A program made the position numbers and the translations under genes. From Podarcis gaigeae (taxonomy: Eukaryota): 64,000 bases of DNA. The stretch is from the NCBI GenBank assembly GCA_964106915.2, contig OZ066925.1; one strand, given 5' to 3'. The stretch's first letter is position 1. Each line of letters opens with the position of its first letter. The notes under the pieces are model-generated. The model had not been told where the DNA came from, did no database searches, and saw only the letters and a list, made by a program, of their open reading frames with translations. Shown piece by piece: positions 14,036 through 33,314 of the stretch.

Positions 14036-14632
14036 GTAAGAATGTTTAAAAGTGTGATTGCTGGGATGTGATGGCCAGCCTAGTGCTTCAAATGAATTCT
14101 AAATTGCTTGGTAAAAGTAGGTAATTGCATCCAGAAACCTTTTTGTGGTTTCTGCCATGTATATTATTTTAGATTATTGTGATAGGATCTCTGATAGGAT
14201 TTTGGTATTATGGATGCAATTTAGCAGTTTGAAAATTATCTCATTAGTGAAATACATTTAGAAACTCAGCAAGAAGGAAGGTATCAAATCAGCCTCTCTG
14301 TATCGCAGTTTCACAGTTGAGCACTTCTGTGCACTAAGCATTTATATGCTCTCCTGTAACAAAGATTCTCTGGGCAGAAAGATTAAAAACAATCACATTA
14401 CAATAAAACTATAGTAATATTAAAATAAACAACTACAAACACAATTCTCTTTTGCCTTACCAAAGATAGAGAGACAGAAAGAAAGACCTTGCTATAAAAT
14501 TGCATTTGGGTAGAAGAGAAGTAGAAATCTGTTGTGCTTTGCGGAGTAGGAATGACCATGACTTGAAACAGTGTTAGATATGCACAATTGTATTGAACTT
14601 TAAAATGGTTATTAAACAAATATGCTCCACAG

Positions 14633-14718
14633 GTCTCATTCATGTTGGCGATGAACTTAAGGAAGTTAATGGAATTCCTGTAGCTGATAAAAAACCAGAA
14701 GAAATTATACAAATTCTG
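14633..14718 (+). CDS. MPP7: MPP7 exon (PDZ) [28 protein letters not shown]
   Basis: ccacag acceptor, gtaggt donor, 86 nt, phase 1-0. Confidence 0.96.
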
Positions 14719-15291: not shown

Positions 15292-15480
15292 GTAAGAGGT
15301 CCTTTACTCAGAAAAAGGGACTTACTCAGATTGCTGGCCGAAATATATTTTGTACCCATATGTAAATGTGTTTTACAATTGTATTTTTACACATGTTGTT
15401 TGTATGCCAATAAGCAATAAAAACGGAGACTGGGGGTTGTAATAAGACATTTAATTACAAATAAGGCCGCCTTCTTCCAG

Positions 15481-15677
15481 ATCTTCATGAAAGCTCTGTT
15501 TGACTATGATCCCAGTGAGGATAAAGCAATTCCCTGTAAAGAAGCTGGACTTCCTTTCAGAAAAGGTGATATTCTTCAGATCATGAGCCAGGATGATGCA
15601 ACTTGGTGGCAAGCCAAGCTTGAAGGTAATGCCAATCCCAGGGCAGGCTTAATTCCTTCAAAGCATTTCCAAGAAAG
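15481..15677 (+). CDS. MPP7: MPP7 exon (SH3) [24 protein letters not shown]...[10 protein letters not shown](R)
   Basis: ttccag acceptor, gtgagc donor, 197 nt, phase 0-2; SH3 motifs ALFDY, WW and GLIP. Confidence 0.97.
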
Positions 15678-16182
15678 GTGAGCAGTTTCTGATTTCTCTG
15701 ATACTTAAAATGTGATCAGTATATCTTTGATATAATTGTTATGCCTGCACTTATGGATTATAAGGTCAATAAACTTTCAAGTTTTGTCCTATGGTAAAAT
15801 GTCTGAACTTTGTAAGTTGTTGCCCAAGTAGTTTGGTTTTCTTTAGTTGTCTATTCACATTAATAATGACAAAACCGTATAGAATATTTGTGATCCACCT
15901 TGGAAAGGAAAAACATATGGAAAATAGTACTTTGGTATCTGTATCTTTATTGATGTACTATGCATTAATAACAACTGCAGCTGTGTTTGGAGAACATAAA
16001 AAACCCTTCTAGGATTTAATTTCATAGACTTGTGAGTAGACTGTATTGTTTAGGAATATGTCTTCTAAAAATCAGGATACTTTGGAAAAGACTGATATGG
16101 AGTGTTAATCTCAAAATAGCTATGAAAATTATAAAGAGTTTTGCTTCTCTTCCCTTCCCCCTTCCCCCAAATCATTTTATAG

Positions 16183-16247
16183 GAGGCTTGCACTAAGAAG
16201 ATCAGATGTACAGGTTCAGCCCTTGAAAGTTTCCAATAGAAAATCAT
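16183..16247 (+). CDS. MPP7: MPP7 exon (HOOK, N-part) RLALRRSDVQVQPLKVSNRKS
   Basis: tttatag acceptor after a pyrimidine tract, gtaagt donor, 65 nt, phase 2-1; ends in a single T. Confidence 0.95.
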
Positions 16248-18316
16248 GTAAGTCTGTTTTAAAATCATACTCCTTTGTTCACACAAATATGGCTTGTATC
16301 AGCTCTTTTTAAGATATGGCGCTGGTATCTTCAGATATATCAGCAGGCCAAAACCTGTGATGCTGTAGGAAAGGGATTTTCGTTAAAGAAAATGGCTTAC
16401 CCCCGCTTCCAACATCAATACTTATGCAAAACCTATTCCCTACAGTGAATAAAATAATAAATATGCCAATCTCTAATTATTGGAAGGGCATTCTTAATGA
16501 CTCACTGAGTATTTAAATACTACACAAAGGGGACACATGTGAAGTCAGTGCTTTTTTTCAGGCTCAACCATCTACTTTTGAAGCATAGTCCAACAATATC
16601 TGAAGGTTGTGTGAAGCTGCTTTGGAGTATGTTTTTAGAACATATCAATAAATATCAGGCTGATATATGATCTATTACCACTCATATGCTTATCAAATTT
16701 TCTGTCAGCTTTTCTTATTAGAACAGAATTGGACTTATAAGAAGTGGCATATATAAGGCATATGTTTTAAAATGTAGCAAGAATATTCTAGCAAGTACTT
16801 TTTCTGTGTGCCTAATTAGAATTATATCAAAAGCAAATGATGTGAAAGCACAGTATCTCTCATCATGGACTAAAAATAGCATGTTTGAAGGTTTCAGAGT
16901 TCTAGTTTTTTAAAAAACACAGTAGTTCATTCTTCTATAGAACAAAGACAGTAACATTGCTCTAAACCAAATCATTTTATTGGTGTACTTGAAGTTGGAC
17001 AGCAAGATGATGAGCCACTTTCTGTGAGGTTTTGGAAAATTAATATAAAATGGTTGCATGGAATTATGTGTGTGTGTTGCAGGTCAGGAGCATGGAGAAG
17101 CAGTCATTTATATTTGTGAACTAGCTCTATTTCTGACATAGGATAGCACTGGACTACATTTGCATGAAATTGGTGACATTTGTTATATGGTGTAACTTAT
17201 GCACGTGTCCTTAAACTTGTCATTCATTTGATGTAATATGTCTTCAAAAGAGAGCATGAACCATCAGTAATTAAAATCAGTTAGACTAATACTGGCCAAA
17301 ACAACTTCTGTCCAACAGAACCATGATTTTTACCATGGTAGTTTGCTTTTATATTTAAGCTGTATCACATGTGTTCTCATTCATATGAGTAATAATAACT
17401 TAATATTGTTAATCCATAATTAGCATTGTGTAATGGATAGGGTGGTTAATCTCTGAAAGACCTAGTTACGTGTATAATCAAAATAGTAATTTTGATATTA
17501 AATATAAACTGAATGATATACTTTTTAAAATTTTCACTAAGTGTGAGAGAAGAAATATTTAATAACTGTCAAATATATTTATATAGTTCAATATCAATAT
17601 CATGTGACTTAGTATGGTGTGCATTCAAGCAAGATGCAACCTATTTTATAATTTTGAGAATTAATTGTGCACAATTCAAATTTTTATGTGGCGCCCAAAC
17701 ACTGAAAGTAAAACTCATTTTGTCGAATTCTACACTGTGTTCACTCTGTGTAATAAAAGCAACTCCTTATACCACTATCTGTTTTGTCAGCAAGCCAAAC
17801 ACATCTTCATTCTTCTTTCAAACCTAGTATTCTTCTGACATTTAGTGAGGAGTCTTCCTCTAATAATCCCTACTATTGCAAGGATAGCAAACTTTGACCT
17901 CGCTTTTTATGCCTATTTGCAGTCCTAAATTATATAAAGTCAGTGTCATCTTGTCTTGGGTCACTTGCTGCTATGGTGACGGCATTAACACAGGCTTCAT
18001 ATTTGCAGTTTGCTGTCTCATCAAACAGAAGAGTGCATTTGATGAATTTCAGTATTTTTGCCTAAAAGTTATCCGCTTAAAAAAATACATTAGCATTTTT
18101 TTGTTTTTATGCATTCTCACGCAAATCTTTTTACGTACAAATTTTGTTAAATGTTTTCGATATAGCTTGGAAATTCAATTTTATACCTTAAGATTTTTAT
18201 ATATCCACAAAAATCTTAGTGATCCTGCTTATGATAGTTTGTCAGTTGATGCTCATTTATAAAAGGAGCTGCTGTGCGTTGTGATGCAGGCAAGTGACTA
18301 AACTGAATGACTCCTA

Positions 18317-18672
18317 AAGGTAAAGGTAAAGGTACCCCTGCCCGTGCGGGCCAGTCTTGACAGACTCTGGGGTTGTGCGCCCATCTCACTTAAGAGGCCA
18401 GGGGCCAGCGCTGTCCGGAGACACTTCCGGGTCACGTGGCCAGCGTGACAAAGCTGCATCTGGCGAGCCAGAGCCACACACGGAAACGCCGTTTACCTTC
18501 CCGCTGGTAAGCGGTCCCTATTTATCTACTTGCACCCGGAGGTGCTTTCGAACTGCTAGGTTGGCAGGCGCTGGGACCGAGCAGCGGGAGCGCACCCCGC
18601 CGCAGGGATTCGAACCGCCGACCTTTCGATCGGCAAGTCCTAGGCGCTGAGGCTTTAACCCACAGCGCCACC
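18317..18672 (-). mobile_element. Sauria SINE
   Basis: (ACCTTT)n tail at the left end, GGTGGCGCTGTGGGTTAAA head at the right end, TSD TGACTCCTA (18308-18316, 18673-18681). Confidence 0.92.
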
Positions 18673-18846
18673 TGACTCCTACTTTCCCCCAAATATACTG
18701 GATAGAGTCATGCATCTGTTGTGCATACCAAATGGCAAACATTTAGAACCTTGTCGCAAAGCAGTTGCATGTTCAACTAATAATGAAACAGATCCTTGAT
18801 ATAAATAATCAGTTGTGTTCCAATTTACTTTCAAGTAATTTGTGTT

Positions 18847-19188
18847 GGCGCTGTGGGTTAAACCACACAGCCTAGGACTTGCCGATCAGAAGGTCGGCGG
18901 TTTGAATCCCCGCGACGGGGATGAGCTCCCGTTGTTCAGTCCCGGCTCCTGCCCACCTAGCAGTTCGAAAGCACATCATGTGCAAGCAGATAAATAGGTA
19001 CAGCTCCGGCGGGAAGGTAAACAGCGTTTCCGTGCGCTGCTCTGTTTCGCCAGAAGCGGCTTAGTCATGCTGGCCACATGACCCGGAAGCTGTACGCCAG
19101 CTCCCTCGGCCAATACAGCAAGATGAGCGCCGCAACCCCAGAGTCGGCCACGACTGGACCTAATGGTCAGGGGTCCCTTTACCTTTAC
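18847..19188 (+). mobile_element. Sauria SINE
   Basis: GGCGCTGTGGGTTAAACC head, GGTCCCTTTACCTTTAC tail, TSD TAATTTGTGTT (18836-18846, 19189-19199). Confidence 0.92.
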
Positions 19189-20684
19189 TAATTTGTGTTA
19201 CTTCATCAGCTCAGTTCTTTTGTCAGTTTCCTTTCTGTGCATCCTACAACTAGATTTCTTTTGCATGCTTAATTTTTTCTTTATCCATTCTAACCAAACT
19301 TGCCTTTCCATCTTAGAAAAATATATAAGAAAGTGGAACCATAATTATTATTATTTGTAGTGTGGCATGCTCCTGTTCAGTACACACATGTACACAGCCT
19401 TTTTTCCTCCACCCCCAGTCAGCCAAGATTTTGTTTCAGTCACATTTTAGTAATTTTGTATTGTACATTGTTTTAAAATCTACATTTTATTTTATTTTAT
19501 TTTATTTTTATTTTAATCTTGTCAAGTTGCTTTGAGATTTTCAATAGAAAGTGACTGAATAATCATTAACATAATATTGCTCATTGAGCATGCTCAGTCT
19601 TCAGTGTGCTGTTTTGGAGTTTCTTGGCTATTTCCTCCCATAATGCCCCCCCCTGAAATCTCCATTTTGTGCTGTTTTAGCTGTATAAGGGCTTGATAGC
19701 TAAGAACTGAGATGGCTAACAGTATTTATAATTCATGCCAAATATAAGTAGGCAACGTTATGGAACTGAAATGTTGAATACTTTGGTTCACATCAAAGTA
19801 GCAGGTACCCGCATCGGTGACTAATAATAATGCAACTTCATGCATTGCGCTCCATGCAGGAAGCTTTCCTGTTGATGTAGCCTCCAAAGGGGTCCAAGAA
19901 TGCCAGTGGAAATCTGGTCTCTCCTTGTGAATGCAAGGGGCTTTCATGGTAATGATCTGGCCAAGGTTTGGGTTAACAGATCTCACACACTGCTCAGTTC
20001 ATAAATGCAACACCCTTAATAGTTCAGGTGGGAAAATTTATCCTCATTGAAAAAATAAATGCTGAAGAAGGCTTTTCTTCCCCAGTAAGCATTTGTCCTC
20101 TTCTTCATTTCTTTCTCAGCTAAGCAACTAAGCTCTTCCTGGGTTCAAAGAAGGTGGGCTATGACAAATTTAGCAGTTGCCTATAATTTAATTCTTTCTT
20201 AACAGCGCAATCCAAAGTGTTTGGATTTGGCAGATCTTGGGCTTTCTCGGCTGAGAGGATAATGGTATTGCTCTGTAAGAGCAACTCTCTCATAATACAT
20301 TGTATCATTTGTATAGAGCACATAAATGAACTAATCCTTTGCCTCTTAAGAACGCATTCAAGTAGGTGTCTTGTCCCTTGTGATTGTGACTTCCTTGTAT
20401 TGTAAAGGGACAAGAATCTGAATAACTACATGCATGTGCCCTTTAAAACTGATATGCATGTGTGTTGTGCCCTGATATCTGTACCATAGTATGACATTTC
20501 ATCAGAAGCTACCTGTGTAAAGTAATGATGCTTGATCAAGGAGCAATAAAAGTGGTACTAGCAGAAGTTGTGTCTTTGGTGGGAGGGGAGACTTTGATGG
20601 GCAAGCAGGCAGAGAAATAAGCCCAAAGAAAGTTTGTTCTAGTGACTTGTAAGTTGTCTTTGGGATGTGTCTAATAAACTAGGG

Positions 20685-20822
20685 CAGGGGTGGGGAGCCT
20701 GTCGCCCCCATATGTCACTGAACTACAGCTCCCATCCTTCATGACCACTAGCCATACTGGCTAGGGCTGATGGGAATCAGAGTCCAGCAACATCTGGAGA
20801 ACCTAAGGTTCCCTACTTCCGG
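20685..20822. mobile_element. Palindromic hAT-like MITE
   Basis: CAGGGGTGGGGAGCCTG...CATCTGGAG...GGTTCCCTAC; same family as 6650. Confidence 0.75.
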
Positions 20823-20829
20823 GCTCAGG

Positions 20830-21025
20830 CAGAGCTTTCCAAACTGTGTGCCACGACGCATTAGTGTGTCAGCTGCAATGTGTAGGTGTGTCACACAAAC
20901 GCTCCCTGTTCTCTTATAAGGGGTTAGTTTAAACTCTGGTTTGCTAGTAAAGCTGAATTACTGTGTCACAAAATGATGCATGTCTAAAAAGTGTGTCACC
21001 AATATGAAAATTTTCGAAAGCTCTG
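20830..21025. mobile_element. hAT-like MITE
   Basis: TIRs CAGAGCTTTCCAAA / TTCGAAAGCTCTG; degenerate 8-bp flanks ggctcagg / ggctagag. Confidence 0.75.
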
Positions 21026-21587
21026 GGCTAGAGGAAGTCTCTGGATGAAAGCAACAACCTGTAGACAACTTAACTTCAACTTAAGAGTGTAACCATTTCA
21101 AAATTACAATTGAAAACCCAGTGACTCTTATTTATGATGCTAAGCAGAACATGACTAGTTAATGTGTTGTTTTTTCACCCCAGGACTGGTACAAACCTTT
21201 CTGTCTCTTAAACAGTGTTAGGGGAGCATAGCCTTTGCATACACACCAAAAAACCTTATACATTTTGAAAGTGAGGTTCTGTCATTTCCTACTCCCATAA
21301 AAGAAATTGGGGTACAGGCTTTTGCAGCAAAATGTTGAACGTGCCGTGCATCATACTTCTGCAAAATATGCTCTTAACCTGTTCTTTATATTACTCAGCT
21401 CTGTTTTTCCCATTTTATTATGTGCTGAATATAATGTAAATCATGTCTGCTTGTCTTTTGGCTGTTCTAAGCTGAGGAAACAGTTGAGTGTGGTAGGTGT
21501 TTTACCCCCCCCCTTTTATTCTTCCATTATGTCTTCAGTCCATGTAATCACTTTGCATCCTATTTTTCCCCCTTTTGCGCTTCTCAG

Positions 21588-21599
21588 AGGAAATTGAAG
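21588..21599 (+). CDS. MPP7: Candidate 12-nt alternative microexon of MPP7, (x)EIE(E)
   Basis: Long pyrimidine tract with TGC motifs (ctttgcatcctatttttcccccttttgcgcttctcag), then AGGAAATTGAAG, then gtacat. Symmetric phase 1-1. GCATG/TGCATG downstream at 21835-21847. Confidence 0.5.
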
Positions 21600-22805
21600 G
21601 TACATGTACAAGTTTCCCTACTGGGCTGCAAGTGATGGCTTAAAAACTAAGCATTCTAGGTCATCACTGACTTCGAGGCAATTAGAAAATAATCCCTATA
21701 GATAGCAGTATATGTAGTCATAACAGCCAGTTGCTTTGTTGTTGCTGGAATTGTTGTTCCAGTCTTGAGAATCGTGGTAGCAGAAGACTGTGAACCTGTT
21801 GCTTTCTGCACGTAGTTCCTACAGCACAGTACTGGCATGTGTGCATGAAGATTCCTGTGGGGTAAGGCACAGGGATCCACATGTGTTATCCCATTGTCAG
21901 ATGTGGTTTCTTCCTTTGTATTTTTCCTTCTCCTCACATAGCAGGAATTTTGGGGGCCCAACAAACAGATCTGCCTGTTTCTGCACATGGGCCAAGTATG
22001 CAGAACAGGAGTGAATGTGTGCTAAAACCTCTGAATGTTAGCAAAGTAACATAACATAAGCAGATATGTTAACACAAGACATTTCCATGGAGCTAAAGAT
22101 GATGTCAGTCCTATTGTATGGCTCTAATAGATTATCTTTCTTAAATTCAAACTTTGACACTGAATAAAGTGGATCTTTTCCAGTCATTAGGGGTGCAATT
22201 TTGGAACACAGCTTGACAGATGCTTTACTGCTGTGGTGTCAATCTTTGGGGGACTTTTCACTTGCAGCATACATTTAAACAGTTGCAGCTCTATCTATAT
22301 CTATCTATCTGTATATACCCCAAAGCTGTAAAGTATTTTGTTAGACATTTGGTATATTAAAATAGGCACCAATACTATTTTATACCTAAGAAGTTATATT
22401 CATTAAAAATACCCTTTCTGTCTGATCCATTGAGCCAAATACAAAAACTCCTGATATTCTTTGTAGATTTCTTTACCTTTGTGTTTCAGCTGTTGTATTT
22501 TTTATCCTACATTAAAATATAAAGTAGAACACCTTTTAAAATCACTTCTTTATTTTCTGTCATGAATAAGGCAATAAAACAGTGAAAAGTTAAATATGCA
22601 TGTTGCTGTACTCCAAAATCTCTTGCTCAACTTCAGAACAACACAGTGATTTATTTTTAAGCAGTAGCATATTGAAGGCTTTTTATGCTGTGCTTTCTGC
22701 AGTTGTCATTTTTAAGTAACTCTTCTTTTGCATTCATGGCTGGGCATCTAACTATTCTGCTTTATTTCTTGGCTTTTGTTCTGTACGCTTTTACACTTCA
22801 TCCAG

Positions 22806-22847
22806 AGGAAGCTGAATGTGCTGGTCACAACAGTGGAGCCCACATAG
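22806..22847 (+). CDS. MPP7: Candidate 42-nt alternative HOOK exon of MPP7, (E)EAECAGHNSGAHI(A)
   Basis: Pyrimidine tract ending ttcatccag, strong donor TAG|gtgagc, symmetric phase 1-1. The peptide aligns without gaps to the MPP3 segment preceding GLRRSF (recalled as ETCDCEGYLKGHYVA). Confidence 0.72.
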   Translation, partial: RKLNVLVTTVEPT

Positions 22848-23162
22848 GTGAGCAGTTGCTTACAAAAGACTCTCTTTCTTTCTCAGCTTTTTCCTGGATG
22901 GCTACAGAGTTTGCAGGTAATGGGCATCACTGCATGCAATGAATCTGCTAGATTAAAAAATGGCTCACTGGATTTGACACAAAGGATCTGCATCCTAACC
23001 GCAACATATGTTACTAACATTGAAATATAGCATGCATTGAAATGCTACCTTGAATATGAGGAAATAATTTACTTGGGTAGAATTTGCAAAGAAATTTAAA
23101 TACTTGTCCTAGACAAAATGCTAGGCTGGCTATATTCCATCTGACTACATTATTTTTCTATC

Positions 23163-28935: not shown

Positions 28936-29106
28936 CTGGTTTCAGGAGGAGTTTCCGTCTCAGCAGAAAAGATAGAAAAACAAACAAGACTATGTATGAA
29001 TGCAAGAAGAGTGATCAGTACGATACAGCAGATGTCCCAACTTACGAAGAAGTAGCAAAGTATAGACGACAGCCCAATGAGAAATACAGACTTGTTGTCT
29101 TGGTTG
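28936..29106 (+). CDS. MPP7: MPP7 exon (HOOK C-part, GK start) [12 protein letters not shown]...TYEEV...YRLVVLV(G)
   Basis: actacag acceptor, gtaagt donor, 171 nt, phase 1-1. Confidence 0.97.
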
Positions 29107-31837: not shown

Positions 31838-33314
31838 CCGTATTTTTCGCTCTATAACACGCACCTGACCATAACACGCACATTGTTTTTAGAGGAGGAA
31901 AACAAGGGAAAAAATATTCTGAATGAAACAGTGGATGTATCATTTTTGTGCTTCATGCTGTGGCCACAGACATGTGATCTGATGGTGAATTTGGGGTGAC
32001 CCAATGCAAAAATCCTGAGAATCCCTGTGGATCCATGCTTTGTAACCACGTTTTTGCACCATTGCAGCCCCAGGCAACAGTGGGTGCGTGATTTTTGGGG
32101 GGCAGGCTGTAGCCATGGACATGCTATGTGCTCTGATGGTGAATTTGGGCTGACCCAATGCAAAAATCCTGAGAATCCCTGTGGATCCATGCTTTGTAAC
32201 CACGTTTTTGCACCATTGCAGCCCCAGGCAACAGTGGGTGCATGATTTTTGGGGGGCAGGCTGTAGCCATGGACATGCTATGTGCTCTGATGGTGAATTT
32301 GGGCTGACCTAATGCAAAGATCCTGAGGATCCATGTAGATCCATGCTTTTTAACCACGTCTTTGCACCATTGCTGCCCCAGGCAACAGTGGGTGCGTGAT
32401 TTTTGGGGGGCAGGCTGTAGCCATGGACATGCTATGTGATCTGATAGTGAATTTGGGGTGACCTAATGCAAAGATCCTGAGGATCCATGTGGATCCATGC
32501 TTTTTAACCACGTTTTTGCACCATTGCAGCCTCAGGCAACAGTGGGTGCGTGATTTTTGGGGGGCAGGCTGCAGCCATGGACATGCTATGTGATCTGATG
32601 GTGAATTTGGGGTGACCTAATGCAAAGATCCTGAGGATCCATGTAGATCCATGCTTTTTAACCACGTTTTTGCACCATTGCAGCCCCAGGCAACAGTGGA
32701 TGCATGATTTTGGGGGGGCAGGCTGTAGCCATGGGCATGCTATGTGATCTGATGGTGAATTTGGGCTGGCCCAATGCAAAGATCCTGAGGATCCATGTGG
32801 ATCCATGCTTTTTAACCACATTTTAAGTGGGGAGGGAAGGAAAAACACAGAACGGACAAGGAGCACGAGAGGGGTGTGCAGAGAAGCAGCTGGCTAAGAA
32901 TGCAGGACAGGGGTATAACGGGAGGGAGGAAAGGAAGGCAAAAGTTTTCCCTCACCTACCCACCCAAGCCAGCCAGCTCGCACGCGCGCGCTCTCTCTCT
33001 CTCCCTCCTGCACGGAGCTTTCCCTTCTGCTTGCCTGGAGGGGAGGGGCTTTCCCTGCTCTTTGTTCCGTTTGAGCAAACACAGCAAGGAAACAGGTGGG
33101 TGGGCAGTAAGACCCTGAGGCAGAATGCAGGAAAGCAGCCACTTCCTCTTTTCAGCTTTGCCTTCTAGGAGAAGCGCGATTTTTGCCTGCTTTTTTTTGC
33201 CTCCCCTTGCACCATTTGGCTCCAGGGACCACACATTCGCTCCATAACACGCACAGACATTTCCCCTTCCTTTTTAGGAGAAAAAATCTGCGTGTTATAG
33301 AAGGAAAAATACGG
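31838..33314. mobile_element. 1.48-kb non-autonomous Tc1/mariner-type element carrying an internal tandem array
   Basis: TIRs CCGTATTTTTCGCTCTATAACACGCA / TGCGTGTTATAGAAGGAAAAATACGG; TA on both sides. Confidence 0.92.
31972..32824. repeat. 154-bp tandem repeat, ~5.5 copies
   Basis: Unit starts (ATGTG(A/C)TCTGAT(G/A)GTGAATTT) at 31972, 32126, 32280, 32434, 32588 and 32742. Confidence 0.96.

Follow-up and report, generated by a model that had tools for sequence, protein, structure and literature searches.

Introduction

Codons that are split across exon junctions ('ragged' codons) change with the exon partner and make up 17% of internal changes (PMC12047184). Poison exons have been described, and the premature stops that they bring can trigger decay of the transcript (PMC12047184, PMC3250501). 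NAGNAG tandem acceptors move the splice site by three bases and add or remove one codon, and the 50-nt rule for nonsense-mediated decay is given in a table legend of PMC3250501. The present analysis concerns a window of 64,000 nucleotides from the lacertid lizard Podarcis gaigeae (assembly GCA_964106915.2, contig OZ066925.1), which carries the gene MPP7 on the plus strand. A cluster of small cassette exons, here called A, B, C and D, lies in a 12.7-kb intron between the constitutive exon U and the exon at 28936. In the protein, the cluster falls into the HOOK region, which follows the SH3 domain and precedes the guanylate-kinase (GK) domain. HOOK (D5) and SH3 were reported as the MPP5-binding part of MPP7 in PMC7662862, where the HOOK of other MPPs is described as binding FERM proteins. 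A classical poison exon brings its own stop or a frameshift, whereas exons B and C of MPP7 are coding or stop-forming by context and cause no frameshift.

The reading favoured here, with a probability of roughly 0.65, is that exon A must precede B or C for an open frame, that transcripts with B or C but without A bear a stop and are likely degraded, and that the stop is most likely a by-product of the encoded residues.

Junction codons of the cassette exons

Exon U ends in TCA-T at position 16247, directly followed by the donor GTAAGT. The 12-nt exon B and the 42-nt exon C both start with AG, and translation of U|B and U|C gave the TAG stop that the initial annotation had described for these two junctions. 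Joined to the exon at 28936, U gives T|CT (Ser) and the ordinary protein of 576 residues, so the main isoform needs no extra exon. All cassettes are symmetric (phase 1-1). Exon U donates T to the split codon, whereas A, B and C donate G, and at the starts of B and C the codon G|AG is Glu but T|AG is a stop. After translation of all combinations of A, B and C, every one was open once A was included. Behind G, Glu requires AA or AG, which make a stop behind T, and Asp requires AC or AT, which make Tyr behind T. Exon D starts with CT and forms no stop behind U. Like a poison exon, the cluster allows a splice choice that builds a premature stop with a later junction over 50 nt beyond it, but B and C are not unproductive whenever they are included, as both are coding behind A.

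The frequency of such stops was estimated from two sets. Among the G-starting codons of MPP7, 49 of 167 (29%) end in AA, AG or GA, and 75 of 378 open candidate segments of 3n length in the intron (20%) start with one of these pairs. Per exon, a junction stop is thus a 20-29% chance event and little more than chance. Where a linker rich in Glu follows a T-ending phase-1 exon, junction stops are expected.

The licensing exon

The initial annotation had read the junction stops as making B and C coding only with a further exon upstream, so that these cassettes either act as poison exons alone or need a co-included licensing microexon. The dependence on another exon and the licensing microexon both held, with a different exon from those it named. 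Annotated isoforms carry a block of seven residues straight after U, which is encoded by the 21-nt exon A. At a threshold of at least 70% identity, the peptide of exon A was found in 85 of 243 scored proteins; the 243 comprised all but five of 248 proteins, the five being without the anchor motif. Judged from these matches, exon A is the predicted licensing exon for B and C, and it had been overlooked, as had exon D. The peptides of the exons proposed instead, 18269-18289, 20133-20153 or the pair 17923-17938 plus 18220-18236, occurred in 0 of 243 proteins at 70% identity.

Two further candidates start with AA (20351) and GA (18266) as claimed, but their status as exons was not upheld. The reading at 18266/18269-18289 was rejected for its GC instead of GT donor. 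The four-residue peptide of 20351-20365 matched 1 of 243 proteins in three of four residues, and the other four candidate readings matched none. The intron holds 1845 segments of 9-48 nt between AG and GT, and the proposed candidates therefore belong to the background. A crude splice-site score trained on the 13 donors and 13 acceptors of MPP7 ranked A 54th, B 42nd, D 4th and 17923-17938 5th of the 1845 (the acceptor of C was not scored). As the score did not separate real from false microexons, it was discarded as a test.

Exons A (21 nt) and B (12 nt) are short, frame-preserving and conserved from ray-finned fish to mammals. Neural microexons of the SRRM4 type have a UGC motif near the 3' splice site, through which SRRM4 acts. 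TGC was found at -24 of A and -12 of B, and also before four of six rejected candidates. A contig of a related species differed in 25 letters over 21059-21906 and in only one letter within 218 nt around A and B, where 8.3 were expected (P=0.002, for one contig, a segment chosen afterwards and a 4-base gap also present there). Exon A itself had no substitution in this contig. In mouse, a 21-nt Mpp7 exon is listed as NEURAL-UP in Table S2 of PMC8395343, and its inclusion in islets was 0.13 in one strain and 0.40 in another.

Isoforms across vertebrates

The tally comprised 247 proteins from MPP7 searches; clade labels were assigned by hand from source names, leaving 15 proteins unlabelled. Proteins were classed by the exon following U, and ab initio models that read through introns (e.g. 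P0071, P0058, P0244, P0035 and P0243) were counted as 'other' or 'read-through' and not as isoforms. Squamates (n=95) were represented by 50 skip forms, 27 A-first forms from nine species, 11 forms with D and 7 odd or read-through models, with no B-first or C-first form. Birds, turtles and mammals (n=126) showed 56 A-first forms, 39 C-first forms with Tyr, 14 skip forms and 17 others. The eight fish proteins were four A-first, one C-first, one B-first and two skip forms, and all three amphibian proteins were A-first. No B-first protein occurred among the 224 labelled tetrapod proteins.

The annotated isoforms of relatives were skip, A, A+B, A+C, A+B+C and D. Partial combinations with A, A+B and A+C contradict the all-or-none module that had been proposed; as read from these isoforms, the cluster is hierarchical and one-way. 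Exons A and C, in the same gene and the same HOOK position, are those of annotated vertebrate MPP7 isoforms (e.g. Podarcis XP_028607220.1 and XP_053266571.1). Exon B matches bird and turtle isoforms, and D matches lacertid isoforms. Squamate exon A starts with CT (Ser), whereas that of other vertebrates starts with AT (Tyr). Exon B was annotated in birds, turtles, mammals and frogs, and in 1 of 95 squamate proteins (a gecko, in an extended form). The cobra ab initio models P0035 and P0243 show Trp-Lys at the start of B, which hints at a changed B start in elapid snakes.

The 11 squamate proteins with exon D were all lacertid and always lacked A, B and C. The D form is annotated as a main isoform in Lacerta, Zootoca and Podarcis. 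Exon D begins 39 nt after the donor of C, so C and D are likely mutually exclusive; the gap is probably too short for both to be spliced, by steric closeness.

Two MPP7 models, P0095 of mouse and P0115 of a whale, have their final residue exactly at the last complete codon of U, as expected of a junction stop. Reading on into the intron after U would give Cys, unlike the ends of these models.

A tandem-acceptor bypass at exon C and its apparent loss in squamates

The residue at the A|B junction was Glu in 56 of 56 proteins matching the pattern. Outside squamates, exon C begins with Glu-Asp or, in a form shorter by one residue, with Asp. As deduced from these residues, the pair is that of a tandem acceptor, whose distal site would give Tyr behind U and provide a bypass of the stop. 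For birds, mammals, frogs, sturgeon and a gecko, the tandem site is implied by C isoforms that are one residue shorter. A joint of U to the 3-nt-shorter C, as Tyr and without A, was annotated in 40 proteins from birds, turtles, mammals and paddlefish, compared with 0 of 95 in squamates; unlike in other vertebrates, an A-less C isoform is not annotated for squamate MPP7. The NAGNAG motif is absent at exon C of P. gaigeae, where AGG stands at +1 to +3 and the NAG at +3 is thereby lost. Since Glu replaces Asp in squamates, both acceptor sites would give stops. The change of the next residue from Asp to Glu appears to have cost squamates their escape from the stop.

A carp isoform joins U to B alone with Leu as the junction codon, which indicates that splicing of B does not need A if the junction codon is not a stop. 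Orthologues thus do show non-stop junction codons, Tyr at U|C and Leu at U|B in carp. The initial annotation had taken this outcome to make the stop a lineage-specific accident, which is not borne out, given Glu in all 56 proteins and the same layout in MPP3.

The paralogues MPP3 and MPP4

In the MPP3 gene of this genome (G000:C25), the upstream exon ends in T, a 21-nt exon has the donor GTAGGT, a 42-nt exon starts with AA among tandem acceptors, and the downstream exon starts with CT. It is like MPP7 in its T-ending upstream exon, its 21-nt exon and its 42-nt exon with an AA or AG start. The same layout suggests that the arrangement likely predates the MPP3/MPP7 duplication. No B-like 12-nt exon was found in a simple scan between the 21-nt and the 42-nt exon. 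Of 119 MPP3 proteins, from a search seeded with the included form, 110 showed the included form, four showed one-residue differences and three were longer models. The remaining two lack the 21-nt exon and use an upstream, stop-avoiding acceptor, giving Ser. Unlike in MPP7, the included form dominates the MPP3 annotation, and it is an acceptor further upstream that rescues the A-less form.

A probable MPP4 locus (L003/L004; G000:C1, about 127043090, minus strand) has an exon-C homologue that starts with AA behind a tandem acceptor.

Exon map and other features of the locus

Assignment to MPP7 of the MAGUK p55 subfamily was based on orthology and on the architecture L27-L27-PDZ-SH3-HOOK-GK (Pfam domains of isoforms P0003 and P0004). 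Fourteen exons were mapped from 5540 to 41861, and joined they give 523 codons and no internal stop. Five further exons follow the downstream exon of the cluster. The features around the cluster are listed in Table 1.

Table 1. Exons and splice-site features of MPP7 in and around the cassette cluster
Feature	Coordinates	Strand	Basis
SH3 exon, constitutive	15481..15677	+	100% identity to MPP7 of the lacertids Podarcis, Zootoca and Lacerta; joint to exon U in RNA contigs, 3/4 runs
Exon U, constitutive, 65 nt, phase-1 end, last T is first base of split codon	16183..16247	+	
Exon A, 21-nt microexon, starts CT, ends G, donor GTAGGT	21472..21492	+	Peptide matches, Podarcis isoform P0003
Exon B, 12-nt microexon, starts AG, 95 nt after A	21588..21599	+	Homology
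Exon C, 42-nt cassette, starts AG	22806..22847	+	13/13 residues match Podarcis isoforms
AAG in exon C, possible in-frame +6 acceptor (T|CT)	22809..22811	+	Open frame
Exon D, 30-nt lacertid cassette, starts CT	22887..22916	+	Annotated lacertid isoforms
Downstream constitutive exon, basic HOOK stretch, starts CT	28936..29106	+	

RNA contigs were taken from four of 24 runs (none recorded as RNA, 18 presumed to be RNA) over 15400-22700, a range that ends before C, D and the downstream exon. The joint 15677-16183 between the SH3 exon and U was present in three of these four runs.

Repeats were observed in the same intron and further downstream. Two SINE-like copies at 18320-18670 and 18846-19188 lie in opposite orientation, 175 nt apart, and are 83-88% complementary, so they could form a long hairpin in the MPP7 pre-mRNA. 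Between 18307 and 19189, a related species' contig has about 164 letters, and both copies look absent from it. A tandem array at 31972-32824, also in an MPP7 intron, comprises 5.5 copies of a 154-nt unit with 95% matches. In the PDZ-region exon 14629-14718, one position encodes Ala and that of Podarcis muralis P0003 encodes Asp. A solved MPP7 SH3-HOOK-GK chain was absent among 29 PDB matches.

Explanations for the junction stop

By analogy to the mouse exon, A would be a neurally included microexon whose inclusion opens B and C. Inclusion would place a stretch that is acidic and contains cysteine directly ahead of the basic HOOK segment, and this insert may alter partner binding at HOOK. Transcripts with B or C and without A would be targets of nonsense-mediated decay, as predicted from the 50-nt rule and the five exons past the downstream exon. 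For C, most vertebrates would escape the stop through the tandem acceptor. The stop persists because of the residues that the protein keeps: T is required for Ser or Tyr where U ends, and AA or AG for Glu where B and C begin. As far as the codons tell, the conserved Ser/Tyr and Glu are sufficient to hold these bases fixed without selection on the stop, which is probably passive, a by-product rather than a purpose-built switch.

Several points weigh against this reading. The equation of the mouse 21-nt exon with exon A is inferred from gene and length only. The junction bases of orthologues were deduced from residues and not read from DNA, and most annotated isoforms are predicted models. The proteins do not count as independent, and the second of the searches was biased towards forms with an insert. 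A stop-bearing isoform never appears as a full protein, so the 0 of 95 in squamates partly follows from the stop itself. Exon B occurs in no lacertid protein and its use here rests on homology. The joints listed for the RNA contigs of the four runs included none to A, B or the initially proposed candidates; these contigs are dominated by SINEs and give no evidence either way. Conservation in both paralogues also fits selection on the stop.

Such selection would make the junction stop an AND gate based on decay, which clears A-less isoforms or tunes the MPP7 dose, has been maintained from before the MPP3/MPP7 split and was tightened in squamates. The T-ending U with an AA- or AG-starting cassette in both paralogues, the ends of P0095 and P0115 at U and the squamates without the Tyr bypass are consistent with it. 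However, residue constraints alone fix the bases. A-less C is common where the bypass exists (39 of 126), and the carp isoform with B alone argues in the same direction, in that A-less proteins seem tolerated. Selection on the stop is thus possible but unlikely. The same low likelihood applies to its stricter wording, in which the split stop, with T on the constitutive exon and AG on the cassettes, is under selection as an AND gate that acts on a neural microexon and needs no frameshift; this gate would predate the duplication and would have become locked in squamates with the loss of the tandem-acceptor escape.

Alternatively, A-less junctions are practically never spliced, because a single neural programme includes A, B and C together, and the stop is never met. 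Exon B follows A after 95 nt, TGC motifs precede both exons, and the lack of B-first forms among labelled tetrapod proteins agrees with such a programme. Against it, U is widely annotated as joined to C without A in other tetrapods, an A-less form is also found in lacertid MPP3, and TGC precedes rejected candidates as well. This explanation was considered unlikely.

A bypass specific to lacertids is very unlikely. It would use the AAG within exon C as acceptor, so that a 36-nt C is coding without A and no strict interlock exists for C. The frame is open, and lacertid MPP3 uses a neighbouring acceptor for the same purpose, but the junction was present in 0 of 248 proteins, and AAG is generally the weakest NAG acceptor. 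The all-or-none version of the initial annotation, with 18269-18289, 20133-20153 or the 17923 and 18220 pair as licensing exons, is extremely improbable: its joins keep the frame open and 17923-17938 ranks high by the crude score, but its peptides are missing from the scored proteins, 18269-18289 has a GC donor, partial combinations are annotated, and exon A accounts for the annotated proteins.

Meaning of the cluster for MPP7

No paper on junction-stop dependence in MPP7 or MPP3 was found in a literature search to which subscription journals and splicing databases were external. The main text of PMC10842930 does not mention MPP7 or MPP3, and its supplements hold one unrelated MPP7 row. The exons and the kind of logic are already known, and only the apparent loss of the bypass in squamates is new.

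Given the partner binding reported for HOOK, the insert could adjust junction complexes in neural tissue. Microexons that are symmetric and free of stops are usually scored as preserving the frame, and any combination of them is taken to be harmless. In this cluster the result depends on which exon lies upstream, so annotation of each exon by itself misjudges the possible MPP7 isoforms. On present evidence, this is an ordinary consequence of phase-1 introns. If the stop were selected and regulated, the cluster would be a compact case of ordered exon inclusion enforced by decay, and if the AND gate were true, the squamate lock would offer a natural experiment as to whether exon order in microexon clusters is enforced by decay.

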